Below, piece by piece: positions 1-56,070 of a stretch of 56,070 bases of DNA. Within the stretch, counting starts at the first letter, position 1. The number at the start of each line of letters is the position of its first letter. The notes beneath the pieces are model-generated. The model was not told the DNA's origin. It searched no databases and saw nothing but the letters and a program-made list of their open reading frames with translations. The stretch is from Verrucomicrobiota bacterium (lineage in GTDB: Bacteria; Verrucomicrobiota; Verrucomicrobiia; Palsa-1439): the NCBI GenBank assembly GCA_037146675.1, contig JBAWWR010000003.1, positions 1 through 56,070 on the forward strand. The letters are read 5' to 3'. Position numbers and translations under genes: made by a program.

Positions 1-2
1 AT

Positions 3-560
3 TGGCAACGGCAAATCATCTTCGTCAAAGACAACCAGAATCCCGGCGACGCCACTTACATGGTTTTTCGCGACATCGTCACGGCCGACCACTCAAGTGA
101 ATGGAACGTCTGGACGCTCGCCAAACCGGGTACTGAAAAGATCGCAGATCGAACGGCGGTGCTCGAAGGGCAATTTGGCGTGGATGTGCTTCTTGCGTTC
201 TACCGCAAACCGCGGGCACCACTGACCAGTTTATTTCATCATCACCGGACTCGGAGTTATATTCAGATGGATCAAAATCAGACACGCATTCAAGCGCGCG
301 CCGAAACTGGCGGGGACTATGGGGTAGTTCTCTTCCCGTTACGTCATAGCGCTGAGGATTCGCCGTCTGTGAAAGAACTGGAATCTGGAGCTGTGGAAAT
401 CCGCTGGGCGACCGGCCGTCGGCATTTAATTTTTCTCTTCCCGGAAGTCCGGGAGATAACGCAGGACGGTGTGACGTTTAAGGGGCGCGCCGGTCTGGTA
501 AAGTTTGAAAACGGAAAGACAACTATTGTGCCGCTGGAATGCGTGCGGATGACTCCGTAA
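3..560 (+). CDS. 5'-truncated CDS; C-terminus of a probable heparinase II/III-like or other polysaccharide-processing protein
   Basis: Frame is open from position 3 (WQRQIIFVKDNQNPGDATYMVFRD...), so the gene starts before the window. The beta-rich C-terminus resembles heparinase II/III-like proteins; product is tentative. Confidence 0.45.
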   Translation, partial: WQRQIIFVKDNQNPGDATYMVFRDIVTADHSSEWNVWTLAKPGTEKIADRTAVLEGQFGVDVLLAFYRKPRAPLTSLFHHHRTRSYIQMDQNQTRIQARAETGGDYGVVLFPLRHSAEDSPSVKELESGAVEIRWATGRRHLIFLFPEVREITQDGVTFKGRAGLVKFENGKTTIVPLECVRMTP

Positions 561-1266
561 TCGCGCCGGCAAGCTGACGGCGCAATTCTGACGCGGCAAC
601 CTGACCGGGGGCGATTGGCGCGTCGAGGTAGCCGTAGGTGAGACAGGAGCCGAGCTGCGGCAATAACGTCCGACTTACCGGGCCGAGCGCGCCCATGCCG
701 AGCAGGCAGACCGACGCGGAACATTGCTCGGTGAATAATTCGCGCAAGGTCGCAAGGTCGGCTTCGGTTTGCGTCAACGTGGCGATTTTTACGACGGTGC
801 CATAATTGGCGGCTTTGCGGATGACTTGTCGGAGTTCGGTTACCGGCGGCGTCCGTTCGAAATCGTGGTACGAAATGATCAGCGCCTTTTGGCGGCTCGC
901 CGCGAAGGCGGAGACTTTTTCGAGGAGCGGACTGCGAAATTCGATATCGACAGCGGTCAGATGTGTTAACGCCGTTTCCAACACCGGTAGGCGCTCGGCG
1001 TCGGGCCGTGTCCACTTGCCGCCTTCGCTGGCAAGGCGGAGCGTGGCGAGGACCGGCAAGCCTTGCGCTTCGATGGCTTTGGCGTGTTCGAGCCAGTGAT
1101 CGGTATCGATTAGGTCGAGACGGATTTCAACGATGTCGCACTGGCGTTCACTGCCGGCGGCGAGTTTTTCCAGTGTACCGGCTTGCGAGACGGTACCGAC
1201 TACTTTCGGCGCTAGGCCGAGGACGAGATTGCCGAAGCGGGTTTGTGGGCGAAGCATCGGAGTCAA
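523..1266 (-). CDS. aroD: Type I 3-dehydroquinate dehydratase
   Basis: DIVEIRLD, TLRxxxEGG, SYHDFERTP, VKIA (Schiff-base Lys) and APGQ motifs. Confidence 0.9.
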   Translation of the reverse strand: MTPMLRPQTRFGNLVLGLAPKVVGTVSQAGTLEKLAAGSERQCDIVEIRLDLIDTDHWLEHAKAIEAQGLPVLATLRLASEGGKWTRPDAERLPVLETALTHLTAVDIEFRSPLLEKVSAFAASRQKALIISYHDFERTPPVTELRQVIRKAANYGTVVKIATLTQTEADLATLRELFTEQCSASVCLLGMGALGPVSRTLLPQLGSCLTYGYLDAPIAPGQVAASELRRQLAGAITESSARIPAAQ

Positions 1267-1781
1267 ATTTTCCGGCTAGCCCAGTTGCCGGCGAAGACAG
1301 CGCCGAGAGTTAATAGCCCAACCATCAGCCAGCGAAAGATTGCCGGTGGCACGTCCATCTTCAACCACGCCGGCCAGATCGTCCACAACAACGCCGCCGC
1401 TCCCAGAAATATTACACAAAGCCAACCCAAGAACTCGAACGTGCGCCGCTCTTCCACCAGCGCGCCGCGCAAGCGATAGATTGTCGCCTGATCTACTTTC
1501 AACTTGTGGGCGGCGTTCTCAGAGAGTAGTGACTCGTCAGTTGCCGCCGTCAGAAACTCCGTGAGCAGCGCCTTCGCCCGCGCCGCTTCAGGCTCAAGCA
1601 CAAAGATGCCAAACGCCTCGTCGCTGTTACGCAGCAACTCGGTCATGTCAAACGACACATTTGGGTCGCCCTGAAAGGCGGCCTCAATACCGTTGTCGCG
1701 CAAGTAGCCGGTCAGCAATGTGCCTTCCCATGTGTCGCGCGCCTTGCGCACCTCGACCAGTTTTGCGTTGGGCTGGTTCAT
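1263..1781 (-). CDS. DUF2007-like N-terminal domain with two C-terminal TM helices
   Basis: 'EGTLLTGYLRDNGIEA...IFVLEPEAARAKALL' pattern, two hydrophobic helices, 4-bp overlap with the aroD start. Confidence 0.65.
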   Translation of the reverse strand: MNQPNAKLVEVRKARDTWEGTLLTGYLRDNGIEAAFQGDPNVSFDMTELLRNSDEAFGIFVLEPEAARAKALLTEFLTAATDESLLSENAAHKLKVDQATIYRLRGALVEERRTFEFLGWLCVIFLGAAALLWTIWPAWLKMDVPPAIFRWLMVGLLTLGAVFAGNWASRKI

Positions 1782-1842
1782 GCCGGTAATCTAGTCCCAC
1801 GCACGATTGCTTTCCACAACAATTCCGCTATGTTGTGGACTC

Positions 1843-2658
1843 GTGAAATCGCACTTTCACAATAAAGTCGTCATCGTGACCGGTGCCTCCAGTGGCATTG
1901 GCAAGGAAACTGCGCTCGCGTTCGGCCGGGACGGTGCGCGTGTCGTCATGGTCGCGCGCCGGGGTGAAGTGCTGCGGCAAATTGCCGAAGCAAACCCACA
2001 ATTACAATTACGACCCATACCGGCGGACATCACCACTCCCGATGCCGCGGCCGAGATTGCCACCACCACGCTCCGCGAGTTCGGGCGGATCGACATCCTT
2101 GTCAATAACGCCGGCATCGGCCAGCGCGGCTCGTTTGCCGAGCTGAATTTCGACGACGCTCGGCGCGTGATGGAACTCAATTTCTTTGCACTCTTGCGCT
2201 GCACACAAGCCGTCGTGCCGAGCATGCGCCAGCAAGGCGGCGGTCAAATCGTCAACATCAGCAGCATTGTCGGCGTGATCGCCACGCCGCAGAACAGCAT
2301 TTACTGCGCGAGCAAATTTGCGGTTCAGGCGCTGAGCGATTCACTCCGGTTGGAATTGGGCCCGGCTGGTATTGATGTCATTTCGATCTTGCCGAGCTAC
2401 ACCGACACACCGTTTTTTGATAATCAAATCCGCACCAGCGGCCCGGCGCGACTCAGTTCAATCCGCGGCCAATCACCGGCACACGTCGCGATGGTCATCC
2501 TGCGCGCCTGCCGGCATCGCCGCCGGGAGGTCGTGCTGACGCTGTCCGGTAACCTTGGCTGCTTGGTAAAACGTCTTTTCCCCGGTTTTGTAGATTGGTG
2601 TCTGCGGCGGTTGTCGGCGCGTAACGGAGATAATTCTTCATGCAATGGGAAAACTTAA
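1843..2658 (+). CDS. SDR family oxidoreductase
   Basis: TGASSGIG, NNAG and YCASK motifs; GTG 1843 preferred over TTG 1807, which is a -35-like box. Confidence 0.9.
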   Translation: MKSHFHNKVVIVTGASSGIGKETALAFGRDGARVVMVARRGEVLRQIAEANPQLQLRPIPADITTPDAAAEIATTTLREFGRIDILVNNAGIGQRGSFAELNFDDARRVMELNFFALLRCTQAVVPSMRQQGGGQIVNISSIVGVIATPQNSIYCASKFAVQALSDSLRLELGPAGIDVISILPSYTDTPFFDNQIRTSGPARLSSIRGQSPAHVAMVILRACRHRRREVVLTLSGNLGCLVKRLFPGFVDWCLRRLSARNGDNSSCNGKT

Positions 2659-3455
2659 CCGCTCGGGAATTCAAAAAAGCCGCCGAGAGCACCGGCGTCT
2701 GCGTCATTGCCATGGGCGTGTTGGAGAAGCACGGTGAGCATTTGCCGCTCGGCACCGATTTTCTGAATGGTCACAAACTGGCGTGCTTGGCGGCGGAGCA
2801 AGAACCGGCGGTGGTGTGGCCGCCGTTTTACTTCGGCCAAATTTACGAGGCCCGGTGCTTCCCGGGAACGGTCACATTGAAACCGGCATTGCTGCTAGAA
2901 CTGATTCAAGGCGTGTTCGATGAAATCGGCCGGAACGGATTTCGCAAGATTATCGTCTACAGTGCGCACGGTGGGAATAATCATTTTTTGCCGTTTGTGG
3001 CGCAATGCAGTTTATGGGAAGAGAAACCGTACAGTCTTTATCTGCCGCCGGTTAATTACCTGACTGCCGACCGCCAAAAGAAATGGGATGCTCTCTGTGA
3101 GACGAAGGAACACGGCCACGCCTGCGAATGTGAAACCAGTGTTTCTCTCGCCAATCATCCACACCTTGTTCAGATGGATCGCCTCCCGAAGCAACCGGCA
3201 AAGGCGCTGCACCGCTTGAAAGCGTTGCGGCCAACATTTACCGGTGTCCATTGGTACGGCGATTATCCTGAACATTATGCCGGTGATGCGCGCCCGGCCA
3301 CTGCCGCCAAAGGACGGATTATGCGCGATCTGCTCGTGGATTCGCTGGCGGAATACATTGCCGCTGTGAAAAAAGATCGGGTCGTTCCCGCGCTCGAGCG
3401 TGAATTCTTCCGGCGCGTCAAGACCGTCGCCAAGCGGAAGAACTCCGCAGCTTAA
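2640..3455 (+). CDS. Creatininase family amidohydrolase
   Basis: EKHGEHLPLGTD, HGGN and GHACECETS metal-binding motifs. Confidence 0.88.
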   Translation: MQWENLTAREFKKAAESTGVCVIAMGVLEKHGEHLPLGTDFLNGHKLACLAAEQEPAVVWPPFYFGQIYEARCFPGTVTLKPALLLELIQGVFDEIGRNGFRKIIVYSAHGGNNHFLPFVAQCSLWEEKPYSLYLPPVNYLTADRQKKWDALCETKEHGHACECETSVSLANHPHLVQMDRLPKQPAKALHRLKALRPTFTGVHWYGDYPEHYAGDARPATAAKGRIMRDLLVDSLAEYIAAVKKDRVVPALEREFFRRVKTVAKRKNSAA

Positions 3456-3509
3456 TTTGTCAGCCATCCATTGACAGGTGCCGGCTTTTTGTGGCAAGAG
3501 GCTAACCCA

Positions 3510-4604: not shown

Positions 4605-4606
4605 TC

Positions 4607-5212
4607 ATGAAAACTAATTTCGTCGCAGACTGGATGATGTGCCAAGCGTGGCGCCAGGAGCCGGAAGCCGATTTATTGCCGGCGCGTGTCCGCGTCGGGT
4701 GGAGCCGAGATGCGATGGTCGTCGAGGCCGAGTTGTCGGACCGCGATATTTTTAATCCGGTCACCGAGTTCAACCAGGCGGCATTCAACAACGGCGATGT
4801 GTTTGAGATTTTTTTGCGACCCGAAGCGCAGGAGCCATATTTCGAGTTCCACATCACGCCGAGCAATCAACTATTCCAGTTGCGTTTTGCCGACGCTCAG
4901 AAAATCCGCCAGCTTCCACCCACCGGCACGCTCGACGAACGGCTGGCTGCCAACAAAATCTGGAAAACGCGCATCACCAGTGCTGTTCGCGTGAATACCG
5001 CCGCGCAGAAATGGTTTGTGAGCGCGACCATTCCGATTGCGATGGTGGTTGAAACGGGTGCGATGCAGCCGGGTTCTCGATGGTTCTGCTCGTTCTGCCG
5101 GTATGACCACACGCGTGGTAAATCAGCACCGGTTTTGTCATCCACGTCTCCGCATGCCGTGTGTAACTTTCACCGGCAGCAAGACTGGCAGCCGGTCGTG
5201 TTCCCGGGCTGA
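4607..5212 (+). CDS. CBM9/DOMON-like sugar-binding domain protein
   Basis: GDVFEIFLRP..YFEFHITP and FCRYD...NFH pattern typical of CBM9-like proteins. Confidence 0.7.
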   Translation: MKTNFVADWMMCQAWRQEPEADLLPARVRVGWSRDAMVVEAELSDRDIFNPVTEFNQAAFNNGDVFEIFLRPEAQEPYFEFHITPSNQLFQLRFADAQKIRQLPPTGTLDERLAANKIWKTRITSAVRVNTAAQKWFVSATIPIAMVVETGAMQPGSRWFCSFCRYDHTRGKSAPVLSSTSPHAVCNFHRQQDWQPVVFPG

Positions 5213-5222
5213 AAACGGTTGA

Positions 5223-7856: not shown

Positions 7857-7877
7857 CCGAACCTCCGGTGCAACAAC

Positions 7878-8015: not shown

Positions 8016-8026
8016 GTTAAGAAGGG

Positions 8027-8896: not shown

Positions 8897-8899
8897 GGC

Positions 8900-40026: not shown

Positions 40027-42513
40027 ATGGCGAATTCCACTACCGACGGCCTGACACCGATGATGCAGCAGTACCGGCGCGTCAAACACCAGATTCCTGG
40101 TGACGCGCTCCTGCTGTTCCGGCTCGGCGATTTCTACGAAATGTTTTTCGACGATGCCAAGACCGCCGCCGGCCTGCTCAACCTCACGCTGACCGCTCGT
40201 AACGGCACGCCGATGTGCGGCATCCCGCACCACGCCGCCGAAGGTTACATCGGCAAGCTGCTTCGGCACGGCAAGAAAGTCGCGATTTGCGACCAGATTG
40301 AAGAAGCCAAACCCGGTAAGCTCGTCCAGCGCGACGTCACGCAGATCATCAGTCCCGGCACGCATTTTGACACCCACATCCTCCACGCCGACCAGAACAA
40401 TTTCATCGCCGCCATCTGTCCCGGCTTCGGCTTGGCGCTGATTGATCTGACTACCGGCGACTTTAAAGTCACCGAACTCGCCACCATCGAACAGCTACAA
40501 AACGAACTCACGCGCGTTCGCCCGGCAGAGATTATCGTGCCAGCAGAATGGTTCGAGGAAGCCAAGCTGCTCATCCCAACTGCGGCGCCGTACGACGGTT
40601 GGACGTTTGAGCGCGAGACAGCGTTTTTCACTTTGCGCGATCATTTCAAGGTGCAATCGCTCGACGGTTTCGGCGCGCGCGATTTGACTGTCGGCATCGG
40701 CGCAGCCGGCGCGGCATTGCATTACCTCCAGCAAGCGCTCCGCCGCAAGACCGACCACATCCACCGGCTCAGTGTCTACCGCGTGACCGATTTCATGGTG
40801 CTCGACGCGGTGACTCAGCGCAATCTCGAGCTCCTCGAATCCGCCAGGGCCGACCGCCGGTATACGGTGATTGGCTGCCTCGACCGGACGAAAACGCCAA
40901 TGGGCGCGCGGCTGCTTCGCGAATGGGTCACGCATCCGTTGCGCGAAGTGCAGCCGATTGTGGAACGTCAGGATGTCATCAGCAAATTCTGCACGGCCAC
41001 GACTGTGCTCGCGGAGTTTCGGGACCAACTCGGCAACGTCCGCGACATGGAACGGACACTGGCCCGGTTGAGCGTCGGCACCGGTAACGCGCGCGACCTC
41101 GTGGCGTTGAAAGATTCGCTCGCGGCCTTACCGGCGTTGCGGCAGACGCTGGCCGGCGTCGCGGGAACCGGGCTGTTGGCCGCGTTGACCGGCCAGATTA
41201 CGGAATTGCCCGGTGTGGTGGATTTGATCACACGCGCCATTGATGACGCGCCGCCGCTGACATTGAAGGACGGCGGACTCATCAAGCCCGGTTACGCGCC
41301 GGAACTCGATGAACAGCGCAGCGCTGCCAAGTCCGGCAAGGACTGGATTGCCGCGCTCCAGCAGCGCGAAGCCGAACGCACCGGCATCGCGTCGCTGAAG
41401 GTCCGGTACAACTCCGTTTTCGGCTACTACATCGAAATCACAAAATCCCATCTCACGAAAGTGCCGGGCGATTACATCCGCAAGCAAACAGTTGCGACCG
41501 GCGAACGCTACTACACGCCCGAGTTGAAGGAGATGGAAGGCAAGATTCTCGGCGCGGAAGACCGCGCGCACGCGCTGGAGTTTGAATTATTTCTCCAAGT
41601 TCGCGCTGCGGTGATTGAGAAGTCGGTTGCGATTCAACAATCCGCCGCCGCCATCGCCGCACTTGACGCGCTAGCCGGCTTGGCAGAGCTCGCCAGGCAT
41701 CAGAACTATTGCCGGCCGGTGGTGAACGCGACCGGCGCAATCGAAATTATCGACGGCCGGCATCCGGTTTTGGAGCAAACCTTGGTCGAGGAACGGTTTG
41801 TGCCGAACGACACATTGCTCAACACGCCGGACAATCTGGTGTTAATCATTACCGGGCCAAATATGGCCGGCAAGAGCACCTATATCCGGCAAGTCGCATT
41901 GCTAGTGTTGCTGGCGCAAGTCGGTTCTTTCATCCCGGCGAAGCAAGCCACCATTGGGCTCGTCGACCGCATTTTCACGCGCATCGGCGCGACCGACGAC
42001 TTGTCGCGCGGCCAAAGCACGTTCCTCGTCGAAATGAACGAGACCGCTAATATTTTGAACAACGCCACCGGCCAGAGCCTCATCATTCTCGATGAAATCG
42101 GGCGCGGCACGAGCACGTTTGACGGCTTGAGCATCGCGTGGGCGGTGGCGGAACATTTACATAATGTCGTCGGCGCCAAGACGCTGTTCGCGACGCATTA
42201 CCACGAATTGACCGAGCTGGCCGTGACGTTGCCGGGAGTGAAGAACTACAACGTCGCCGTCCGCGAATGGCACGACCAGGTCATTTTCCTCCACAAGATT
42301 CTCCCCGGCGGCACCGACAAGAGCTATGGCATCCAAGTCGGCCGCCTCGCCGGCTTGCCAAAAGCTGTGATTGCGCGCGCCAAGGAAGTGCTGGGTAACC
42401 TCGAGGAATCCGAGCTTTCAGCCGAGGGCAAACCAAAGCTCGCGAAGACGAAGAAGAAGTCGGAAGTCCGGGAAGCACCGCAAATGTTTCTGTTCGGCGA
42501 AAAGAAAAAATGA
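40027..42513 (+). CDS. mutS: DNA mismatch repair protein MutS
   Basis: TPMMQQY, GDFYEMF, TGPNMAGKST, DEIGRGTST, ATHYHEL and SYGIQV motifs. Confidence 0.98.
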   Translation: MANSTTDGLTPMMQQYRRVKHQIPGDALLLFRLGDFYEMFFDDAKTAAGLLNLTLTARNGTPMCGIPHHAAEGYIGKLLRHGKKVAICDQIEEAKPGKLVQRDVTQIISPGTHFDTHILHADQNNFIAAICPGFGLALIDLTTGDFKVTELATIEQLQNELTRVRPAEIIVPAEWFEEAKLLIPTAAPYDGWTFERETAFFTLRDHFKVQSLDGFGARDLTVGIGAAGAALHYLQQALRRKTDHIHRLSVYRVTDFMVLDAVTQRNLELLESARADRRYTVIGCLDRTKTPMGARLLREWVTHPLREVQPIVERQDVISKFCTATTVLAEFRDQLGNVRDMERTLARLSVGTGNARDLVALKDSLAALPALRQTLAGVAGTGLLAALTGQITELPGVVDLITRAIDDAPPLTLKDGGLIKPGYAPELDEQRSAAKSGKDWIAALQQREAERTGIASLKVRYNSVFGYYIEITKSHLTKVPGDYIRKQTVATGERYYTPELKEMEGKILGAEDRAHALEFELFLQVRAAVIEKSVAIQQSAAAIAALDALAGLAELARHQNYCRPVVNATGAIEIIDGRHPVLEQTLVEERFVPNDTLLNTPDNLVLIITGPNMAGKSTYIRQVALLVLLAQVGSFIPAKQATIGLVDRIFTRIGATDDLSRGQSTFLVEMNETANILNNATGQSLIILDEIGRGTSTFDGLSIAWAVAEHLHNVVGAKTLFATHYHELTELAVTLPGVKNYNVAVREWHDQVIFLHKILPGGTDKSYGIQVGRLAGLPKAVIARAKEVLGNLEESELSAEGKPKLAKTKKKSEVREAPQMFLFGEKKK

Positions 42514-42828
42514 TTCCGGCGACGTTTCTCGCGGCTTACATGGTAGTAGGCGCTGGACAGACTCAGGGCTCCGACACTACTGGCGTCATCACCGCACCAA
42601 AACCTGGCCCGGCGGACCGACAAGGTGATGGTATTCACATTTACAATTTTGCTCGCCACGTTCGCCAAGGTCAATCGGACTCTGACGGCAGAAGAACGCC
42701 AAGCGCTCCTGAAACTTCGCAACCCCGACGAATATACTAGCGCCCCCGCCTACATCTACTCCACACCGGTTCACGAAGCGGTGCCGTTACCGGATACGGA
42801 TTCTTTCTTCAGAGCGCCGATGAAATGA
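42510..42828 (+). pseudogene. Probable internally deleted or frameshifted relic of a secreted hypothetical protein
   Basis: Signal-like start MIPATFLAAYMVVGAG overlaps the mutS stop. A protein-like C-terminus (ATFAKVNRTLTAEERQALLKLRN...AYIYS...PDTDSFF) lies in another frame and its stop overlaps the next ATG. Confidence 0.45.
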
Positions 42829-43101
42829 AAACTGCGCTGGTAGTTGTTGCGCTGTGCTCGACCGGATTCGCGACCGGCCTATCGGTAATTCCCGGTTGGC
42901 CACCGGACCGCTCGGTTACGTTGAGCGTGTTGTCGGTAACGAATACGGAGGCGCGTATCGAGAATGGCTACAAGTAGGGCTTGGGGTGGCTCCGGTTACC
43001 TCCGCGTGACTGTGTCGGCCGCCGAAGCCAAAGTGGAATACGTCCGCCCCGACCGGTCGCTAGCGCACTCGGATATCATTCCCGCCGGCAGCAACCCCTG
43101 A
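42825..43101 (+). pseudogene. Internally deleted metallophosphoesterase (purple-acid-phosphatase-like) relic
   Basis: Signal peptide plus IPGWPPDRSVTLSVLS..EARIE joined directly to NGYK*G and, after a +1 shift, GGSGYLRVTVSAAEAKVEYVRP; catalytic core absent. Confidence 0.6.
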
Positions 43102-43184
43102 AACACCCGGCGATAGCGTGCCGGACTTGCGCTTTACCGGGGTTGGAATGGGTGTATATTCCGGTGCCGAGAGGCAGGAGGTAC

Positions 43185-43376
43185 ATGATGAAACTGGAAC
43201 TGACTGAACAAGAGTGTCAGGAATTGACCAACCTCGTCCGGGCGGCGCATAGCGACTTAGGCTCTGAGATTCATCACGCGCGCGACAACCAGTATCGCGA
43301 AACGTTGCACATCCGTCGCCGCGTACTCGAAGAGCTGCTCAAACGCCTGAATGCCGAAATGAAAATGGCCGCGTGA
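43185..43376 (+). CDS. Small helical hypothetical protein
   Basis: AGGAGG Shine-Dalgarno, TTTACC-16-TATATT promoter, amphipathic MKLELTEQECQELTNLV...SDLGSEIHH. Confidence 0.75.
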   Translation: MMKLELTEQECQELTNLVRAAHSDLGSEIHHARDNQYRETLHIRRRVLEELLKRLNAEMKMAA

Positions 43377-43448
43377 CTGCGGCAAATGTTGCTTGGAATA
43401 GGTTGAAGGAAGAGGCGTGTGGGATGAATGAGACAAAAGCGCGTCTTG

Positions 43449-44168
43449 TTACAGCGGAAACGCTTCATTAAGCCAGCGCAGCGCGTCAAAGTAAAGCTCA
43501 TCCAAGGGACGGACGCTTGCGCAATACTGCGTGTGATTCGGCGACTGCGGGTTGTCGAAACAAGGATTCGTCGTGCGTTCGGCGGAAGTAGCCTTCGGTA
43601 ATAATTTGCGGAATTGTTCGACGTCTTTATCGAGCTGTGGGTCTTCTTTAGATTTGTACTTCTTGCATATGTAAACCCGCGTCGTGTAGCTCTCTAGAAT
43701 TCTTCTAGCCGCCTTCGAATCCGTACAGGAAACACCGAGTTCCGATTTCTTGCCGCTGCAAGTATCAGCGTCTTCAGTTACGCAGACATATTTCATATTG
43801 GAGCTTGTGCGGATCGCTAATCCCCAGAAAGCGACTTCAGTATGCCGAGCGTGGAACGAGACCTTACAGCTAATGATACCTAGTACACGCCACTTGGTGT
43901 CGTCCTTGTAAATAACATACAAATCTGTATCAGGATAATCTTTTATCTGATTCTGGTCGCAAGGACGTTTAACCGGCAATGTGCTGTATTCAATAATCTG
44001 ATCAACTAAGCCAGCGTCCTGCAAAACGCGACTCAGTTCCTTGCGGCTGCCTTTGATGACGAAAATCTTATGCTCGTTAAGTAACGGGTTAAGAATTCGC
44101 GCCACAACCGACTCCAGATTGTTTCCAGCTTGCGTTCGTGCAGCCTGCGCGATCCGGTTGTCAGTCAT
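43449..44168 (-). CDS. Putative type II restriction endonuclease, BsaWI-like PD-(D/E)XK family
   Basis: AGNNLE, YPDTD and IISCKVS motifs; AT-richer; ATGA-coupled to the methyltransferase. Confidence 0.65.
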   Translation of the reverse strand: MTDNRIAQAARTQAGNNLESVVARILNPLLNEHKIFVIKGSRKELSRVLQDAGLVDQIIEYSTLPVKRPCDQNQIKDYPDTDLYVIYKDDTKWRVLGIISCKVSFHARHTEVAFWGLAIRTSSNMKYVCVTEDADTCSGKKSELGVSCTDSKAARRILESYTTRVYICKKYKSKEDPQLDKDVEQFRKLLPKATSAERTTNPCFDNPQSPNHTQYCASVRPLDELYFDALRWLNEAFPL

Positions 44169-45145
44169 TTCTGTTTGGCCTTTTTGCGAATCGTGTACGT
44201 CGTTTTGCTATCTGCCATTATTGTTGATATCGGTATGCTTTTAGATTTTTCGACCTGTATCTCGGCGAGATGCATTTGCTTAAGTTCAGCGGTAACACGC
44301 TCAGCGGATATGGCGCAATATCTTTTAGAGAGGTCTAGGTGGACGTAATGCCTGCCGGTCCGGGCGGCGACGGTGGCCACGGTGCCGGTACCTCCGAATG
44401 GATCTAGAATGACGTTGCCACGGTAGCTGTAAAATTTTATGAGTCGGTATATGAGTTCTTCTGGAAATGGAGCTGGATGCCCTTCTTCTTTTTGTTCTGG
44501 TGCTTTACGGCCGTGTTTCGGCGGGTATAGACTTTTCAAAAATGGTTGCCGGCCGCGCGTCTCAGGCGAAATCCGCCAGAAGGCATCGGAAAATTTGATG
44601 AATTCTTCACTGGTTATGTCGGCGTCGGCTTTGTTGCCTTCTAGCGTCCACGAACCCTTCGAGAAGACGAGGACGTATTCCCAACTCGGTAGCACGTGCG
44701 GATTGCGCGGGCTCTTCCATGAACCCCATGCGGTCCGGCGGCGAATGGTTTGTTTGTACCAGAGAATTTCGGTACGCATGATGAAACCGAGTTTTTTCAA
44801 GTCTCGCGTCATATCATAGTGGACTGGTTTGAAATCCTTGATACTAGTCGGGGCTATGTTGAGAGCAAATCGACCTCCCGGTGCCAGCACGCGGTAAAGC
44901 TCACTCCAGAATTTCGTAAGCCATTGCAAATACTCATCATAAGGCATCTTGTCATTATGGGAGTCGTACTGAAGGCCGACATTGTACGGTGGAGACGTAA
45001 TGGCTAAATGGACGGATTCTGCTGGCATGGCTTGCAAGATCGCGTGGGAATCGCCACATATGATCTGGTCCTTCCACCAGTCACTGGTAGTAGTCGGTGG
45101 TGGAAAATTCAGGATACTTAACTGCGGTTGGACGGAGCTTGGCAT
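44165..45145 (-). CDS. Beta-class N4-cytosine/N6-adenine DNA methyltransferase
   Basis: TSPPY (motif IV) precedes HPAPFP and LDPFGGTGT (motif I). Confidence 0.93.
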   Translation of the reverse strand: MPSSVQPQLSILNFPPPTTTSDWWKDQIICGDSHAILQAMPAESVHLAITSPPYNVGLQYDSHNDKMPYDEYLQWLTKFWSELYRVLAPGGRFALNIAPTSIKDFKPVHYDMTRDLKKLGFIMRTEILWYKQTIRRRTAWGSWKSPRNPHVLPSWEYVLVFSKGSWTLEGNKADADITSEEFIKFSDAFWRISPETRGRQPFLKSLYPPKHGRKAPEQKEEGHPAPFPEELIYRLIKFYSYRGNVILDPFGGTGTVATVAARTGRHYVHLDLSKRYCAISAERVTAELKQMHLAEIQVEKSKSIPISTIMADSKTTYTIRKKAKQK

Positions 45146-45189: not shown

Positions 45190-45208
45190 ACGCTCTGACG
45201 TTTGATGG

Positions 45209-49009: not shown

Positions 49010-49093
49010 GACGGCAAGGTAGCACGCGACCGCTTGCGCCGGCAAGCTTGCCGGCGTAGGTTACCGACCAGAATAACAACTGGAGAAATCAAA

Positions 49094-49405: not shown

Positions 49406-49425
49406 CCCACTGTCCAGACAGTTAG

Positions 49426-49469
49426 GCAACGGAGCGAACGAAATTCTTTGTTTGCTCCGTTTGCTTTTT
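49426..49469 (+). terminator. Rho-independent terminator
   Basis: cggagcgaacgaa/tttgtttgctccg stem followed by a T-run. Confidence 0.55.
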
Positions 49470-49494
49470 GCTAGAGTCCGGCCAGGAAACAATT

Positions 49495-50595
49495 ATGTCT
49501 GAAACTTATTTCATCGTTCCAGCGTCCCAACATAACCAACTCGTCGAACGCGCGTACCGGCAGCGCGGCTACACACCAGACGAAGCCGCCGACGGCGCAC
49601 GCTTTTGCGAATTAGCCGCGACGCACGGCATCCGCACGCACAACGCCATCAAGGCGATTCACCTCGACGAACTGTTTGGTTCGAAAGTCGGCGGTTGCAC
49701 GCCGGGCGCGAAACTGGAAAAGCTGCCGACGAAATTCAAGGCCGTCCAGCGCTGGAACGCCAATAAAAAACTCGGCCAGTCCGTCGCGTTCGCAGCGATG
49801 GATGCCTGTATGAAAATGGCCGACGAATACGGCGTGGGCGTCGTCACTGTGGACAATGCCTTTCATTACCTCTGGGGCGGCGGTTACGTGATTGACGCGG
49901 CTAAAAAAGGTTACATTGCGTACACCTGTTGCACCGCCGGCACCAGCGAAGTCGTGCCATTCCTTGGTAAGTATCCAACGATGGGTACCAATCCGCATTC
50001 GTGGGGTTTCCCGACCACCGACGCCATTGGTTATCCAATTTGCATTGATTGGGCCACGAGCACTGTCGCGATGGGCCGTGTCCAACAGCTCGCCCGCGAA
50101 GGGAAACAACTCCCGCCCGCCGCCGCCGTGGACGCCGCCGGCAACCCGACGACCGACCCGACGCAAGCAAAGTCGCTCTTGTTCTTCGGCCAGCACAAAG
50201 GTTACGGCCTCGCGCTCGTGAACGAACTGCTTGCGGCCTTTACCGGCAGCGGCATTCCTTATTTGCGCGGCAAGTGGAGCGAAGGTCCGGCCAACGAAAA
50301 GCACACGCCACACTTCTTCTTCCAATGTATCAAAGCAGAAGCGCTCGACTGTGCCAACTTCCCGGCCGGTCGAACACAGAAGACCAACGTCAACGCCGTC
50401 ATTGAAGACATCCGCGGCCACGGCAACGACAGCGTCATGTTGCCGGGCCAACTCGAAGCCAGCGCGGCGGCGCGCACCGCGCAACACGGCGGCCTCCTTT
50501 TCACAAAAGCCGAGATCGAAGCCTTTAACGAGATCGCCAAGGAATGTGGCGCGGAATTGTGGGACCCGGCAAAGTTGAAAGCGATTACGGCCTAA
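49495..50595 (+). CDS. Ldh_2 family (malate/L-lactate-type) oxidoreductase
   Basis: HGIRTH, GTNP, DWATS, HKGYGL and LPG motifs. Confidence 0.88.
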   Translation: MSETYFIVPASQHNQLVERAYRQRGYTPDEAADGARFCELAATHGIRTHNAIKAIHLDELFGSKVGGCTPGAKLEKLPTKFKAVQRWNANKKLGQSVAFAAMDACMKMADEYGVGVVTVDNAFHYLWGGGYVIDAAKKGYIAYTCCTAGTSEVVPFLGKYPTMGTNPHSWGFPTTDAIGYPICIDWATSTVAMGRVQQLAREGKQLPPAAAVDAAGNPTTDPTQAKSLLFFGQHKGYGLALVNELLAAFTGSGIPYLRGKWSEGPANEKHTPHFFFQCIKAEALDCANFPAGRTQKTNVNAVIEDIRGHGNDSVMLPGQLEASAAARTAQHGGLLFTKAEIEAFNEIAKECGAELWDPAKLKAITA

Positions 50596-51958
50596 CAAAG
50601 TTCGCAACTTGGCCGGTGGCAAACGCCGCGCCGAGCGACTCGATTAAATCTGTCGCCAACAGCGCCGGTGCGCTAACTCGCTGAGTAGCTAGATCGCCGG
50701 CGCGCCCGTGCAGAAACACACCGGCCTTTGCCGCTTCCAATGCTGGCAATCTTTGTGCTAGCAGCGCGCCGATGATGCCGGTCAGCGCGTCGCCCATTCC
50801 ACCTTTAGCCATGCCGGGATTACCGGTGGAATTAATCCAGAGCTTGCCGGAGTTGTCAGTAACAACCGTGCCGGCGCCTTTGAGCGCGAGGATCACGTCG
50901 TGATCGCGAGCGAATTGCCGGGCAAACTCCCACCGGTTGGCCTGAACTTCCTGCGCAGTTTTTCCGGTGAGCCGGCTCATTTCGCCGGGATGCGGCGTCA
51001 ATACCAGTCCCGGTCGCAGCGCGACAGCGGTCAATGCATCAGCATCGACAGCGACTGGTAATCTTAGTTTTGCCACAAAATCACGGACGAACTTTTGCGT
51101 TTCCGGTGCGCGTCCCAAACCAGGGCCGATGGCGACGGCGTTGAAGTTTTCCAATGCTGGCAGTCGGTCTAGCGTCACCGTCATAACTTCAGGCGGACAG
51201 TTGCCGGCGACGATTTCGTAAATATTGCGTGGCACCGCAAGGGTTACCAAGCCGACGCCGGATCTGGCGGCGGCGTGGGCGCACAGGACCGGCGCGCCGG
51301 TATAGCCTTCCGCACCGGCAATGATCAGGAGATGACCGAACGTGCCTTTGTGTGCCGACCGCTTCCGTTCCGGTAACGCGAAATCGGCGCGCGTGAGCCA
51401 TTCCACATCCGACACCGTATCGGTCGGTTCAAGTAAACCGATGTCAGCGATTTCGAGTTGGCCGACGTAATCCACGGCAGATGGCTGGAGTAAATCAATT
51501 TTCGGCAATCCGAAGGTCACTGTCACGTCAGCGCGCACGCAAGTGCCGGTTCCCAATCCAGACGGCACATCAATGGCGATGACGAAGCTCCGGCTTCGGT
51601 TAATGAATTCAATGGCCGACCGGTACGGCTCGCGAACTTCGCCGGTCAAGCCGGTGCCGAGTAAGCCATCAATGATCAACGGTGCTGCCGGTAACTCGCC
51701 GGTGAGTTGGTCAAAGGTGATGAGTGTCGGCGCAAAACCGGCTGCGGTGAGAAACCGGGCGGCCACGATAGCGTCCCCGCCGTTGTTCCCTTTACCGGCA
51801 AGCAGGAGCACTTCGCGCGCGTTGTGTTGTCGGAGAAATTCGCCGGCCAGCTGGGCGACGGCGCGTCCGGCACGTTCCATCAACACTGCGCTCGGTGTCC
51901 CGGCGGCGACAGTGCGCGCGTCGAGTTGCCGCATTTGCGCGGTGGTGACGATTTTCAT
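50585..51958 (-). CDS. nnr: Bifunctional NAD(P)H-hydrate epimerase/dehydratase
   Basis: LMERAG, GKGNNGGD, DVPSG, HKG, GPGLG, TPHPGE and GGMGD motifs. Confidence 0.94.
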   Translation of the reverse strand: MKIVTTAQMRQLDARTVAAGTPSAVLMERAGRAVAQLAGEFLRQHNAREVLLLAGKGNNGGDAIVAARFLTAAGFAPTLITFDQLTGELPAAPLIIDGLLGTGLTGEVREPYRSAIEFINRSRSFVIAIDVPSGLGTGTCVRADVTVTFGLPKIDLLQPSAVDYVGQLEIADIGLLEPTDTVSDVEWLTRADFALPERKRSAHKGTFGHLLIIAGAEGYTGAPVLCAHAAARSGVGLVTLAVPRNIYEIVAGNCPPEVMTVTLDRLPALENFNAVAIGPGLGRAPETQKFVRDFVAKLRLPVAVDADALTAVALRPGLVLTPHPGEMSRLTGKTAQEVQANRWEFARQFARDHDVILALKGAGTVVTDNSGKLWINSTGNPGMAKGGMGDALTGIIGALLAQRLPALEAAKAGVFLHGRAGDLATQRVSAPALLATDLIESLGAAFATGQVANFVRP

Positions 51959-53178
51959 TACGCGCCGAATTTATCGAAGCGTTTGGCGTTGGCTTGCATA
52001 AAGCGGATCAGATATTTTGCGTCGAAAATGCCAAGGCTGCCGTGGTTGGCGGCGCGTTCGGTGAAGCGTTCCATCCCATCCCAGCCGGCAATCTCGCTGC
52101 TAATCATCACCGGTTGCGGATGCCAACTATGGCCTTTCATCGGGACCGGCGTGGAATGATCTCCGGTCACGACGAGCACATCGGGATTTGCCGCAATCAA
52201 TGTCGCCAAGCCGGCGTCGGCTTCTTCGATGGCTTGGACCTTGGCGTCAAAGTCGCCATCCTCACCGGCGGCATCGGTCGGCTTGATGTGGATGAAAACG
52301 TAATCGAAAGTTTTGAGCGCTTCGACGGCCATTGTAAATTCTTCAGCGAGCGAGTGCGCGCCTTCGATTTTCGCCATGCCGACGAGTTGAGCGAGGCCTT
52401 TGTACATTGGATAAATCGCGATGCAGGCGGCTTTCAAGCCGTACCGGGCCTGGAACGTCGGGATGTGCGGCTGGTGGGCGATGCCGCGGAGGAGGAAGCC
52501 GTTGGCGGGTCGGCAGTTTTTCAGCAGCGGCAACGCTTGCCGGTAAAACTCGGCGACGAGTTTGGCGGTCTTGGCGGTCTTGGTGGTTTTTTTGACCGGC
52601 CTGGCCACGCCGATGGGCTGGCCTTCGCGGCCGGGATCGGAATTAGTCAACGGCCCTTCGAGACCTTTGCCGCGGAACACGACGACAAACCGGTGGCCCT
52701 TACCGGCCTTGATGATGACTTCGACGCCGCTGATTTTTTTGATTTTCTTTTTCAGGATCTCGACCTGCGCTTCGCACACGCTAGTGTCAATGCGCCCGGC
52801 GCGCCGGTCGGTGACGAGGCCTTTGGCGTCGAGCGTGCAGAAGTTGGCACGGGCGGCGACGTCACCGGCTTTGAGGTCGATGCCGAGGCCGAGCGCTTCA
52901 ATGACGCCACGGCCGACTTCAAATTCGAGCGGGTCGTAGCCGAACAAGCCCAGGTGGCCGGGGCCGCTGCCGGGTGTGATTGCCGGAGCGACTGGTGTCA
53001 GGCGCCCCATTGCGGAGCGTTTGGCGAGCGCGTCAAGATTCGGCGTCTTGGCAACTTCAAGTGGCGTGCGGAAGCCGGTTGACTCGGTAGCGATGTCACC
53101 GACGCCATCGAAAACGACGAGCGCGAGCTTGGATTGGTTCGGGATGGTGAGGTCGGAATAAATCTTGTCGAGGTTCAT
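51958..53178 (-). CDS. apgM: 2,3-BPG-independent phosphoglycerate mutase, ApgM type
   Basis: DGVGD, TPNLD, PGSGPGHLGLFGYDP and TGDHSTP..HSWHP motifs. Confidence 0.9.
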   Translation of the reverse strand: MNLDKIYSDLTIPNQSKLALVVFDGVGDIATESTGFRTPLEVAKTPNLDALAKRSAMGRLTPVAPAITPGSGPGHLGLFGYDPLEFEVGRGVIEALGLGIDLKAGDVAARANFCTLDAKGLVTDRRAGRIDTSVCEAQVEILKKKIKKISGVEVIIKAGKGHRFVVVFRGKGLEGPLTNSDPGREGQPIGVARPVKKTTKTAKTAKLVAEFYRQALPLLKNCRPANGFLLRGIAHQPHIPTFQARYGLKAACIAIYPMYKGLAQLVGMAKIEGAHSLAEEFTMAVEALKTFDYVFIHIKPTDAAGEDGDFDAKVQAIEEADAGLATLIAANPDVLVVTGDHSTPVPMKGHSWHPQPVMISSEIAGWDGMERFTERAANHGSLGIFDAKYLIRFMQANAKRFDKFGA

Positions 53179-53231
53179 AGTGCCCGGCTTGTAACACTTT
53201 GGGGCACCACCCGGCAAGCCTGCGCTACGCG

Positions 53232-54374
53232 TTACCGGTTGATGTGAATGATCTCGGCGGGCGGGAAACCGTTGAAATATGTGGACGAAGCGTGGCTGTA
53301 GGCACCGATGTTTTCGCTGTAGAGCAAATCACCCAGCGCCAAGTTTGACGGCAATTGCTCCGCCATCGAAACCACATCGAGCGCGTCGCACGTTGGGCCA
53401 AACACGGAACAGATCTGGGTCGGGCCTTTTTTGAACGCCTGCAAGTGGTAGTGGCAGTGGTCGAAAATAACGCCGGAGAAAGTGTGATAGACGCCATCGT
53501 CAATGTAGTAGCAAACCTTGCCGTCGCGCACAGCCTTGCCAATGATCCGCGAGACGGAAATGCCGGCCGTCGCCACGAGGAAGCGGCCCGGTTCGGCGAG
53601 GATTTGAATGTTAGGCGGGAAGAGTCGCTCAAGCTCACGGTTGATGATGTCGGCCAATTCCGCAAACGGTTTGACCGAGGCATCGTATGGCGCCGGGAAG
53701 CCGCCACCGATATCGAGTACGTTCATCTTCGTGTAGCCACGTTCTTTGGCTTCCTTGAAAATGTTGGCGGCAAGGTTCAACGCTTGGACGTAGTTCTCGA
53801 AATTCGTAGTTTGGCTACCGACGTGAAAACTCAAGCCTTCGACGGTCAACCCGGCTTTGACAGCCGCCAGAATCAAATCCACCGCTTCGCCTGGCGCGGC
53901 TCCAAACTTCGACGACAACTCGACCATCGCGCCGGTATTGGCCACCTTCAGCCGCAACGCAAGACCGGCATTAGGCGCGAATTTTTTGATTTTACGGATT
54001 TCCTCGGCGTTGTCGTAGGTCACGAGCGGATTGTAGTGATCCAATTCGGCGAGCGTCTCGTTGGCCTTGATCGGATTGGCGTAAATGATCTTGTCCCAAA
54101 TCCACTGTTGCCGCTTCTTCGCCGGCAGGTCTTTGATGTTCTCGCAGACGATTCGCAGTTCCGGTAATGACGCGACATCGAAGCTCGCGCCGGCCTTGAA
54201 CAATGTGCGGACAATTTCCGGATTCGGGTTGGCCTTGACCGCGTAGTAGGCTTGGACGCGCGGCAAGTACTTCTTGAACGTGGCGTAGTTGCGCCGCAAT
54301 TCAGCGTGATCCACCACAAACAACGGCGTGCCGTGCTCCCGCGCGAGCCTCTTGAGTGTGGTGAGCGAAACCAT
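53232..54374 (-). CDS. Fold-type III PLP ornithine (or lysine/ornithine) decarboxylase
   Basis: YAVKANP, SKFGA, HVGSQ, DIGGGF, EPGRF and GPTCD motifs. Confidence 0.9.
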   Translation of the reverse strand: MVSLTTLKRLAREHGTPLFVVDHAELRRNYATFKKYLPRVQAYYAVKANPNPEIVRTLFKAGASFDVASLPELRIVCENIKDLPAKKRQQWIWDKIIYANPIKANETLAELDHYNPLVTYDNAEEIRKIKKFAPNAGLALRLKVANTGAMVELSSKFGAAPGEAVDLILAAVKAGLTVEGLSFHVGSQTTNFENYVQALNLAANIFKEAKERGYTKMNVLDIGGGFPAPYDASVKPFAELADIINRELERLFPPNIQILAEPGRFLVATAGISVSRIIGKAVRDGKVCYYIDDGVYHTFSGVIFDHCHYHLQAFKKGPTQICSVFGPTCDALDVVSMAEQLPSNLALGDLLYSENIGAYSHASSTYFNGFPPAEIIHINR

Positions 54375-54376
54375 GC

Positions 54377-55834
54377 TTAATCTCCGTCAGTGATTAAGAA
54401 ATTCTTAAACTGCCACGGGTCACGCCGGTCAATATTCGGTTTGTTATAGCCGGGGAACGCGTTGGCGTAATGCTTCAACGGGGTCCAGTCCGACGGCTTG
54501 GAAATCCATTTTCCGAGATACGGCTTGGCAATTTTCAGGACGTACTCGTGCGGTAAATCATCCGGCACGCATACGCCTCGCGCCGGGTTCTCAATCATCC
54601 ACGAGACCGCCGCCACGACTGAAATCGCGACCTGCATCGTCGTCGCATTTTGGTGCGGTACGAGCCGGCGTGATTCTTCGATGCTCAGATCGCTACCAAT
54701 CCACCACGAATTGTAAGAATGTCCCATCAGCAACGAACCAAGAATGTCCGCACCGGTGGTGATTTCGTCGTTCAGGATGCGCTGCTTCTCCGGTAGCTGG
54801 TAGTCGTAGCCGCGCAGCTCGTTGAGCGAGGCAATGGCCACATCCGCCGGACAATAGGCGTAGTGCACTGTGGGCCGGTAGACGGCTTTGCCCTTTTTCC
54901 AGACGGTGAGTCGGTCCGAAATGGTGAACGCTTCGCCGTGCCGGACCACCATGCCGCGGATGCAATAATTCGGCACCCATGACACGACCCAAGTGTTCAT
55001 GCCCATACGCGCGAGGCAAATCTGGTTGCGCGGGCCACTCGAGTGTTCGTAGGCGAGTTCGGGCAATTCCTTCTCGTGCGTGCCCCAGCCCATCTCGGCG
55101 GTCGTGGTGCCTTCTTCGCGAAACCCTTCCACGCTCCAAGTATTCACGAACTCATCCACTTCTTTGGGCCGGTTGGTGATTTGGGTGTCGCGTTCGCTGC
55201 AATGAATTACCTTCACGCCAAGCTGCATCGCGAGCTCATTAAATTTCTGGTCCGCGATGAGTTGCGCGAGTTTCTCCGCCGCGCGGCCGGTCACCCGCTT
55301 GTCTTTGAGTGTGCGCTTGCCAATATCCAAGAGGCCTTGTTTGGTGAAATGTGAAATCAGCCCGGGATTCGCACCGTGCTCCAACACCGCCGTCGGGCCC
55401 GGTGTTTTCCACTTGGCAATCATCGCGCGCAGTTTCATATGCCGCCAGTAGAGCGTCATCTCTTGTGGGGTCGCATTCTTCGAGTTCTCATACGGATCCC
55501 AGAGCTCGACCGAAGTGTTGACGTAGAGGATGCCGCGATCGTGGCACCACTGGACTAGTTCGCAGCAATCAATGTTCCAGGCCAAATCAATCAAGACGTC
55601 GCCGGCATTCAGATGTTTGCCGAGCAACGAGCCCATATTCTCGCGCGTGACGCGGTCCCGAACAAACTTCACGCCGCGCTTCAGCCACGGCTGGAGCGCA
55701 GTCCGCCGGTCCGCGAAATCCATGATGGTGATGTCCCGGCACGGCACACCGAGCTCTTTGACTAGAATCGGCAACGTGCATTGCGCGACCGCGCCGTAAC
55801 CGACAAATAAAATCCGTTTTCCAAATTTGATCAT
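54377..55834 (-). CDS. hss: Homospermidine synthase
   Basis: HGANPGLISH, NTWSVEGF, HGEA, YRPTVHYAY and QNAT motifs; AGGAG before ATG 55834. Confidence 0.92.
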   Translation of the reverse strand: MIKFGKRILFVGYGAVAQCTLPILVKELGVPCRDITIMDFADRRTALQPWLKRGVKFVRDRVTRENMGSLLGKHLNAGDVLIDLAWNIDCCELVQWCHDRGILYVNTSVELWDPYENSKNATPQEMTLYWRHMKLRAMIAKWKTPGPTAVLEHGANPGLISHFTKQGLLDIGKRTLKDKRVTGRAAEKLAQLIADQKFNELAMQLGVKVIHCSERDTQITNRPKEVDEFVNTWSVEGFREEGTTTAEMGWGTHEKELPELAYEHSSGPRNQICLARMGMNTWVVSWVPNYCIRGMVVRHGEAFTISDRLTVWKKGKAVYRPTVHYAYCPADVAIASLNELRGYDYQLPEKQRILNDEITTGADILGSLLMGHSYNSWWIGSDLSIEESRRLVPHQNATTMQVAISVVAAVSWMIENPARGVCVPDDLPHEYVLKIAKPYLGKWISKPSDWTPLKHYANAFPGYNKPNIDRRDPWQFKNFLITDGD

Positions 55835-55951
55835 AATTCTCCTTAAAAACTCGCCGGCGCCAATGTGTCTGAAATTGTTTTTCATGACAAGCGTTTTCCC
55901 GGTTTAAAATTGGGATTGCCGTGCCTTGCAGTGTGTGCACAATGCCGATCT

Positions 55952-56070
55952 GTGAATTTAACTGACCATGCCGCCAAATTGGTGGCCCGCACACGCGCCG
56001 CCGGTGGCTTGGCGCCGGTGGATCTCGCTCGGTTCTGGAGCGATCAGGACCGCGCGTTTGCCAATCCATT
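55952..56070 (+). CDS. 3'-truncated CDS, possibly URO-D family
   Basis: GTG start, open to the window end (MNLTDHAAKLVARTRAAGGLAPVDLARFWSDQDRAFANP); TTGCCG-16-CACAAT ends 8 nt upstream. Confidence 0.5.
   Translation, partial: MNLTDHAAKLVARTRAAGGLAPVDLARFWSDQDRAFANP

Follow-up and report, generated by a model that had tools for sequence, protein, structure and literature searches.

An excess of RCCGGY sites in a Verrucomicrobiota genome is probably the tip of a short-range, genus-level oligonucleotide bias and not an iterated palindrome

Genome signatures and context-dependent codon biases, a subject associated with Karlin and co-workers, are lineage-specific patterns of oligonucleotide usage. 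Very short patch (VSP) repair, as in the Dcm/Vsr system that acts on CCWGG in E. coli, can raise the frequency of a methylase target word, lowers that of its T-containing neighbors and needs Vsr. Among highly iterated palindromes (HIPs), HIP1 (GCGATCGC) is described as 15–300 times over-represented relative to a second-order Markov model and as conserved above control palindromes (Xu, Lawrence and Durand 2018, PMC5861425). In the description given by Elhai 2015 (PMC4390886), HIP also has a looser sense, namely a word whose observed/expected (O/E) ratio to base composition is an outlier and whose density is about 500–2500 per Mb or more, and rCCGGy is the "alternate HIP" of Oscillatoria PCC 10802. 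The enzyme for that word is reported there as the 5-methylcytosine (m5C) methylase DmtD, the word lies within the 8-mer CACCGGCA (647 per Mb, O/E 32), and most genomes with the rCCGGy methylase are described as lacking the excess. Here we examine RCCGGY in a 56,070-bp stretch of DNA, referred to as the window (contig C3, JBAWWR010000003.1), and in the whole genome to which it belongs, a soil or freshwater Verrucomicrobiota (GCA_037146675.1, labeled G000). The initial annotation of the window had taken RCCGGY for such an iterated palindrome. We find it more probable that RCCGGY is the tip of a short-range, strand-symmetric, genus-level oligonucleotide bias, that is, of a genome signature, and not a palindromic unit.

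The G000 assembly comprises 2.65 Mb in 228 contigs, the longest of 65 kb, and is rated 99.96% complete. Enrichment is given throughout as the ratio to base composition (O/E0), to a second-order Markov model built on trinucleotides (O/E2), or to the expectation given tetranucleotides (O/E3) or pentanucleotides (O/E4). In the window, 426 of 781 CCGG sites (55%) were RCCGGY, which is one per 132 bp at a G+C content of 56.9%, and counts per 2 kb ranged from 7 to 31. Dinucleotide-preserving shuffles of the window gave a mean of 102 RCCGGY (standard deviation 8.8, maximum 124), and 0 of 100 reached 426. Genome-wide there were 19,113 RCCGGY among 35,331 CCGG (54%), one per 139 bp or 7,199 per Mb, with an O/E0 of 4.37, while the contig-level O/E0 had a median of 4.48 (5th–95th percentiles, 2.1–5.7). 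These counts confirm the abundance of RCCGGY in the genome. The hand counts of the initial annotation proved exact: 22 of 35 CCGG are RCCGGY at 50581–51900, within the gene for NAD(P)H-hydrate dehydratase/epimerase (50588–51958, G+C about 60%), 8 of 15 at 1–1200, and 4 of 8 in a 1694-bp restriction-modification (RM) module at 43452–45145, one of them in its nuclease gene and three in its methylase gene. Its base-composition expectation also agreed with ours (about one RCCGGY per 600 bp and a 25% share of CCGG). Other NCCGGN words were not equally enriched in the genome, with an O/E0 of 0.49 for YCCGGR and 1.61 for mixed flanks.

Genes were called with a simple open reading frame (ORF) and codon-score caller, giving 2293 genes that cover 89% of the genome. 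They held 17,359 RCCGGY, against 8,718 ± 66 in shuffles of synonymous codons within each gene (n = 20, O/E 1.99) and 11,461 when dinucleotides were kept as well (n = 20, O/E 1.51); YCCGGR stood at 0.46 and 0.68 under the same two controls. These figures bear on the simplest alternative, an artifact of amino-acid and codon usage in which Ala-Gly, Thr-Gly, Pro and Arg codons of a 57% G+C genome would generate the word. GCC, ACC, GGC, CCG and CGG are indeed frequent codons, G+C at third codon positions is 68%, and the order of amino acids adds to the expectation, since permuting codon order predicts 6,433 RCCGGY and synonymous shuffling 8,718. The excess nevertheless persists with protein sequence, codon usage and dinucleotides all kept, and when all 4096 hexamers were ranked by z-score, CCGG-containing words came out on top under both codon controls (12 shuffles each). 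Each of the four RCCGGY words was enriched in each codon frame (1.39–2.92), and 248 kb of intergenic DNA in 975 pieces gave O/E0 values that match the genome, at 5.00 for GCCGGC, 4.79 for GCCGGT/ACCGGC and 3.34 for ACCGGT, with TCCGGA at 0.83 and CCCGGG at 0.29. The excess survives the codon controls, appears in all frames and is equally strong between genes; therefore, the force acts on DNA and not on codons. We reject the codon artifact, which we consider extremely improbable. The occurrence of the motif in different codon frames and in intergenic DNA, which the initial annotation had reported, thus extends to the genome, and the amino-acid pairs and codon usage that it had named as a possible cause do not remove the enrichment.

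The excess was accompanied by strong biases in other words. Genome-wide O/E0 was 0.41 for CCC/GGG, 0.21 for CCCC and 0.24 for CCWGG, the last also being low in intergenic DNA (0.27), and relative to synonymous shuffles CCTGG stood at 0.26, CCAGG at 0.37 and RCGGGY at 0.45. Codon choice followed the neighboring bases. Before GG, 75% of GCN codons ended in C, 10% in G and 4% in A, and 80% of ACN codons ended in C. TAY was written TAC in 93% of cases before CGG and in 49% before CGC, and CGN was CGG in 75% of cases between AC and C and in 41% after AG. Overall, the next codon shifted the synonymous C:T ratio between 1:1 and 13:1. As a separate observation, GATC stood lowest of all tetramers against its trinucleotide expectation (0.65), and CGATCG reached 0.37 of its codon-shuffle expectation; no Dam-type methylase was found.

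The enrichment of RCCGGY faded as the composition of its sub-words was taken into account. Pooled over the four words, O/E fell from 4.37 over base composition to 1.66 over trinucleotides, 1.09 given tetranucleotides and 0.99 given pentanucleotides, and single words had O/E2 values of 1.41–1.90. Non-palindromic hexamers were equally enriched, namely CGGCAA/TTGCCG (5.28) and CCGGCA/TGCCGG (5.07). A longer hidden motif was rejected, because the 8-mers and 10-mers listed add nothing beyond their sub-words (O/Emax 0.79–1.20): the 8-mer TGCCGGCA has 770 sites, an O/E0 of 11.7 and an O/Emax of 0.93, TTGCCGGCAA has 104 sites and an O/Emax of 1.01, and the best 8-mers reach an O/E0 of only up to 13.7 with an O/Emax of about 1. 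The 4 × 4 table of bases flanking CCGG was near independence (RY*YR/(RR*YY) = 0.83). Relative to independent flanks, the true palindromes ACCGGT and GCCGGC stood at 0.83 and 0.90, and the same mild deficit was seen in other palindromic cores. Neither a longer consensus nor a strand asymmetry was seen around the sites, and their spacing at short range was near geometric (coefficient of variation 1.14) apart from a 3-base ripple; for HIP1-type elements the spacing criterion is quasi-periodicity at 10–90 kb. RCCGGY is thus not a recognized palindromic unit; its effects are short in range and its flanks do not cooperate, and the reading as a highly iterated palindrome was not supported in the HIP1 sense.

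Set beside the known cases, RCCGGY resembles HIP1, as that element is described, in being palindromic, rich in G+C and spread over all frames as well as intergenic DNA. It differs in strength, at 1.66 times the second-order Markov expectation against 15–300 times, and in that its conservation lies on the trend set by abundance (see below). With the rCCGGy of Oscillatoria, compared here by its published description, it shares the degenerate word itself, an over-representation relative to base composition, a density above that of other HIPs, a candidate methyltransferase in the genome and related genomes that mostly have the enzyme without the excess. The differences are that the enzyme there is m5C and three of the four words are enriched, whereas no C5 methylase was found in G000 and all four words are enriched (3.3–4.8), and that the 8-mer there reaches an O/E of 32, far above the best 8-mers here. 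At an O/E0 of 4.37 and 7,199 sites per Mb, G000 falls within the looser sense of a HIP; neither over-representation of the HIP1 type nor enrichment of the whole palindrome was found. In sheer abundance the case is thus comparable to the rCCGGy "alternate HIP", yet it does not pass the over-representation and whole-palindrome tests for HIP1-type elements.

We also compared sites between genomes, aligning 210 kb of the close relative G002 to G000 (84.7% identity) and using the Jaccard index as in Xu et al. 2018. The index for RCCGGY was 0.368, against 0.26–0.30 for other hexamers of equal G+C, and in non-coding DNA it was 0.375 against about 0.28. These values, an excess found in every frame and in spacers, and gains that roughly equal losses speak for a selected function, in which CCGG or RCCGGY would be kept for a nucleoid protein, as an uptake or recombination signal, or for DNA structure. 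Conservation, however, is what abundance alone predicts. It rises with abundance over 190 hexamer classes (r 0.50), and the RCCGGY words fall on this line (residual z −0.26, 0.00 and +0.67), beside the non-palindromic CGATTT and GATTTT. Synonymous identity in CCGG contexts was 0.83–0.94, even against G001 (78% identity), close to the context-specific genome frequency of the same base (0.75–0.93), as expected from independent drift to a shared strong bias. A three-genome alignment (30.7 kb) gave 26 gains and 21 losses of RCCGGY in G000 and 33 and 25 in G002; parsimony polarization inflates the gains of all G+C-rich words (82 gains and 11 losses for GGCC), and only the contrast between words was used. 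The sites are near equilibrium and show no clear site-specific conservation. One site per 139 bp would also carry little signal information, and the lack of a longer consensus or strand asymmetry and the near-geometric spacing point the same way, leaving a selected function quite improbable in our view.

The bias peaks in the genus of G000. We drew on 40 relatives, mostly as 20-kb samples and some shorter, with larger samples for two. RCCGGY O/E0 was 4.4 in G000, 4.9 in G002 (whose mutS is 96% identical) and 5.6 over 190 kb of G001, and 2.7 and 3.1 in G003 and G004 of the same genus; it was 1.1–3.05 in the rest of the family, 0.76–1.5 in the order and 0.08–2.05 in the class. In DNA around mutS of more distant bacteria it was 0.2–2.9, with one outlier at 7.0. 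Among the 32 relatives sampled over at least 8 kb, which as kin are not independent, RCCGGY O/E correlated with the avoidance of CCC (Spearman −0.75) and of CCWGG (−0.53), a descriptive result. The excess therefore tracks the avoidance of CCC/GGG, and only same-genus genomes among these 32 come close to G000, in keeping with the lineage-specific feature that had been proposed. One sequence fetched via mutS, L062 (CAYYMT010000086.1, "uncultured bacterium", 42% G+C), showed, over 16.5 kb, CCGG at 4.95 and RCCGGY at 6.97 times the base-composition expectation, the latter a ratio above that of G000.

A candidate methylase for CCGG-type sites lies in the window itself, in the RM module that stands tail to tail with mutS (Table 1). 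The stop of the methylase gene overlaps the start of the nuclease gene. The nuclease gene has a G+C content of 48.4% and one RCCGGY among two CCGG, the methylase gene 49.9% and three among six. Where named, the 86 homologues of the nuclease are called "BsaWI family", and 30 of them together with the query were used for a structure model (predicted local distance difference test score 86). Its best fold matches were BsaWI (4zsf), AgeI (5dwc/5dwb), PspGI (3bm3) and PfoI (6eko). A catalytic motif of the S-x-K type would be expected with this fold. No family was returned by an NCBIfam search of the nuclease, and a phmmer search against PDB gave nothing relevant at E values up to 1. Of the enzymes of this fold, BsaWI is reported to cut W/CCGGW (PMC4652773) and Bse634I R/CCGGY (PMC3413111), and AgeI also belongs to the CCGG family (PMC5389614). 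The window nuclease resembles them in its match to Pfam RE_BsaWI and in its model, and differs in that identity to the solved enzymes is only 13–16% with template modeling (TM) scores of 0.40–0.44. Together with the adjacent methylase it is predicted to form a CCGG-family type II RM system. Word avoidance was rejected as a guide to the target: relative to G001, WCCGGW is reduced ~2-fold in G000 and G002, which equals the product of single-flank effects and is not specific.

The methylase is probably an N4-cytosine enzyme, judging from its SPPY motif and its PDB relatives, which include the N4-cytosine methyltransferases 8s9m/8s9n and M.PvuII (1boo). Half of the 40 relatives (20) have a homologue with 68–81% identity, including 18 of the 24 family genomes, and SPPY was present in all 16 methylase sequences examined. 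At 14 of 15 relatives' methylase loci examined no adjacent PF18643 nuclease was found, and of the 41 genomes searched only G000 and G002 yielded the BsaWI-type nuclease itself. The G+C content of the methylase equals that of its flanks in all sequences examined except G000. At least five loci (G008, G010, G007, G022 and G016) combine flank-equal G+C with a housekeeping context. The neighboring genes at several loci are dnaK, priA, mutS and the genes for shikimate kinase and dehydroquinase. In G010 mutS and the homologue are immediate neighbors, tail to tail, and no nuclease separates them. The methylase tree does not follow that of the species, G004 lying far from G000 and G002, and identity to the G000 methylase stays flat at 68–81% while mutS identity spans 63%–96%. 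The homologues are widespread and mostly free of a nuclease, so a largely solitary methylase, probably of the N4-cytosine type, has probably been a long-term resident of the family, with the nuclease joining it in one sub-lineage. The methylase stands between the genes for shikimate kinase and dehydroquinase in G022, G004 and G009. In G004 and G018 it is followed by a conserved 250-aa protein (71% identical) with a signal-peptide-like start and no family match.

Such an enzyme invites a methylation-linked explanation, in which an N4-cytosine methylase marks CCGG-type sites and these accumulate as an "alternate HIP" of the kind described by Elhai, through methylation-coupled repair or through protection of N4-methylcytosine (m4C) from deamination, as proposed for rCCGGy/DmtD. 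An SPPY methylase beside a CCGG-family nuclease very probably has a target that contains the site of the nuclease, and the frequency of its homologues, their mostly nuclease-free loci and the housekeeping context of some of them are what a solitary resident enzyme would show. CCGG turnover, moreover, is slower than that of the other G/C-only tetramers compared. Yet the genomes with the closest methylase alleles (G020, G011, G008 and G021) have an RCCGGY O/E0 of only 1.2–1.7, and across the family the ranges overlap, at 1.1–5.6 with a close homologue and 1.3–3.05 without one. Methylase presence gave no clear pattern when tried as a correlate of the excess among the 40 relatives. A 6-bp recognition site should also be enriched as a whole, and here the flanks are uncooperative (0.83) and O/E3 is 1.09. 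We consider this explanation unlikely, though it ranks ahead of selection for a function. A little less likely still is its most specific form, that a solitary m4C methylase, resident in most genomes of the family and recruited by a BsaWI-type nuclease in two of them, drove rCCGGy up to one site per 139 bp in one genus as an m4C counterpart of rCCGGy/DmtD outside cyanobacteria. The search for a conserved orphan methyltransferase proposed in the initial annotation thus did turn up mostly solitary SPPY homologues, whose presence the excess does not track.

Repair of deaminated cytosines gives a further means of judging the methylation route. Words that differ from RCCGGY by one C-to-T change were not depleted: against synonymous shuffles RTCGGY stood at 1.24, RCTGGY at 1.35, RCCAGY at 1.22 and RCCGAY at 1.26, and against dicodon shuffles the same four words stood at 1.03–1.26, so that no depletion of T:G product words was seen under either control. 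Profile searches of G000 gave 0 matches to PF00145 (C5 methylase), PF03852 (Vsr) and PF02086 (Dam-type), in searches whose Vsr and C5 profiles matched in 3 and 9, respectively, of 14 control genomes. Vsr and C5 methylase were not found in G002, nor was Vsr in G001, which leaves none of the three most RCCGGY-rich genomes with Vsr and only G001 with a C5 methylase. VSP repair, which shares with the present case the feature of being a DNA-level process able to raise the frequency of a word, was rejected, since neither Vsr and C5 methylase nor a loss of T-containing neighbor words was found in G000. Of the proposal of a HIP-like system driven by methylation or repair, the DNA-level action stands, and the C5, Vsr or Dam-type enzymes and the depleted C-to-T words were not found.

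Relatives often carry cassettes of C5 methylase and Vsr, in which the recognizable nucleases belong to the EcoRII-C or MvaI/BcnI families (G004, G018, G012 and G009). The targets of these nucleases we take to be of the CCWGG or CCSGG type rather than CCGG. The cassettes fit the depletion of CCWGG rather than a CCGG system, and this depletion, which is strong in the genome, suggests that the family was long exposed to CCWGG-type restriction. The C5 methylase of G001 (L160:9618-12926, C140) lies beside an IS1595-type transposase and two ORFs without a family match. Besides a Type ISP-like enzyme, G000 holds three PF01555 genes, and the other enzymes were rejected as candidates. The 636-aa PF01555 protein on C95, cut by the contig end, has a best relative only 50% identical and was not found in G002, the PF01555 methylase on C196 is interrupted by a TAG stop, and the enzyme on C16 (C16:166-3357, L125) is a 1064-aa Type ISP-like restriction-modification enzyme of the adenine type. 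A Dam-type candidate was dropped, none having been found in G000.

A genome signature accounts best for these observations. Under this reading CCGG and RCCG/CGGY would be favored and CCC/GGG, YCCG/CGGR, CCWGG and GGCC avoided, RCCGGY being the overlap of favored tetramers. The force would operate at the level of DNA irrespective of the kind of site, would have intensified in this genus, and would bend synonymous codon choice according to the next codon. Its driver would most likely be a neighbor-dependent bias in mutation or repair, or weak selection against runs of C or G. The analysis shows the action on DNA, the short range, the non-cooperating flanks, the pattern across the lineage and a turnover close to equilibrium; what drives the bias is inferred. 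The pattern is like known signatures in being strand-symmetric, short-range, uniform along the genome, common to close relatives and weaker in acquired DNA, and differs from them in its unusual size, with a palindromic tetramer on top and the wide swing in synonymous C:T ratio.

Several points weigh against a signature as the whole account. Once the trinucleotide expectation is allowed for, CCGG leads all 256 tetranucleotides in over-representation (1.35 genome-wide, with 1.29 in the intergenic portion), a residual excess for which this reading does not account. Five of six codons were better conserved inside RCCGGY than outside. Of 386 CCGG sites in G000, 174 (45%) were shared by all three genomes of the alignment, against 15–28% for the other G/C-only tetramers compared (GCCG/CGGC 24%), a retention not explained by abundance alone. 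A methylase probably acting on a CCGG-type site is present with homologues widespread in the family. All gene calls come from a crude caller, and for most relatives the sample was no longer than 20 kb. Elhai 2015 (PMC4390886) documents an rCCGGy excess together with an rCCGGy methylase in a cyanobacterium.

The initial annotation had also proposed that motif density marks the residence time of genes and that the RM module is poor in RCCGGY. When the 1607 genes that are 600 bp or longer were ranked by density, the nuclease gene stood at the 3rd percentile and the methylase gene at the 10th, which bears out the second claim. Both look foreign, with codon scores at the 2nd and 3rd percentiles and G+C contents of 48–50% between flanks of 57%. 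The nuclease gene of G002 holds 2 RCCGGY in 717 bp, and the methylase gene of that genome is native-like, with 7 in 1032 bp at 56% G+C. The module would be motif-poor because its lower-G+C DNA arrived recently and is not yet at host word usage; as recent arrivals not yet drifted to the words of the host we would count the nuclease gene and the G000 allele of the methylase. The first claim held only loosely. The poorest 5-kb windows include O-antigen and glycosyltransferase clusters, two transposases and an island with RhuM and Eco57I-type genes, yet they also hold the core genes mnmE, gidA, carA and ftsY, and G+C dominates: gene density of RCCGGY had a rho of 0.51 with G+C, 0.16 with codon score and 0.05 with codon score after correction for the gene's own G+C. 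As a flag of atypical DNA, low motif density performs about as well as G+C.

Some loci were observed along the way. At C29:7001-12000 (L149), a motif-poor island, a RhuM-family gene adjoins an Eco57I-type methylase domain. In six small contigs (C226, C201, C171, C196, C174 and C160) RCCGGY does not exceed about 1.1 times base composition, compared with a genome median of 4.5, and these contigs may be mobile or mis-binned DNA; C171 holds a DDE transposase, and C196 a VRR-NUC gene along with its interrupted methylase. A 67-codon ORF at 42625–42825, in the spacer between mutS and the nuclease gene, had no family match. The best public relatives of the window mutS (54–62% identity) are Verrucomicrobiota metagenome-assembled genomes labeled Chthoniobacterales, Terrimicrobiaceae and similar. 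In G003, G008, G018, G020 and G040 the mutS match is split into two to four segments inside a single long open frame, which suggests short insertions at about residues 133–137 and 378–381 of the predicted protein in several genera. The match of G040 spans one TGA.

Table 1. Features of the window, with positions counted from its first nucleotide
Feature	Coordinates	Strand	Remarks
RCCGGY field, 426 among 781 CCGG	1..56070	.	Genes of both strands and spacers; sample of the genome-wide bias
mutS	40027..42510	+	Tail to tail with the RM module
Spacer between mutS and nuclease gene, 941 bp	42511..43451	.	G+C 57%, 16 CCGG, 4 RCCGGY; native-like composition
Putative type II restriction endonuclease, BsaWI family (CCGG-family fold), 239 aa	43452..44168	-	Pfam PF18643, E 6.9e-21
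Predicted beta-class DNA methyltransferase, 326 aa, motif IV SPPY	44168..45145	-	Pfam PF01555, E 1.3e-43
Densest stretch named in the initial annotation	50581..51900	-	22 RCCGGY among 35 CCGG; within the NAD(P)H-hydrate dehydratase/epimerase gene

The case shows how a strong genome signature can be told apart from a real iterated palindrome. Shuffling codons would by itself have let RCCGGY pass, whereas it did not pass under sub-word Markov models, in the test for flank cooperation or in the comparison of conservation at matched abundance. Should the driver be mutational, the 13:1 swing in the synonymous C:T ratio would be a large context effect. The bias affects codon-based and k-mer-based binning, as well as the detection of islands, in this group of Verrucomicrobiota.

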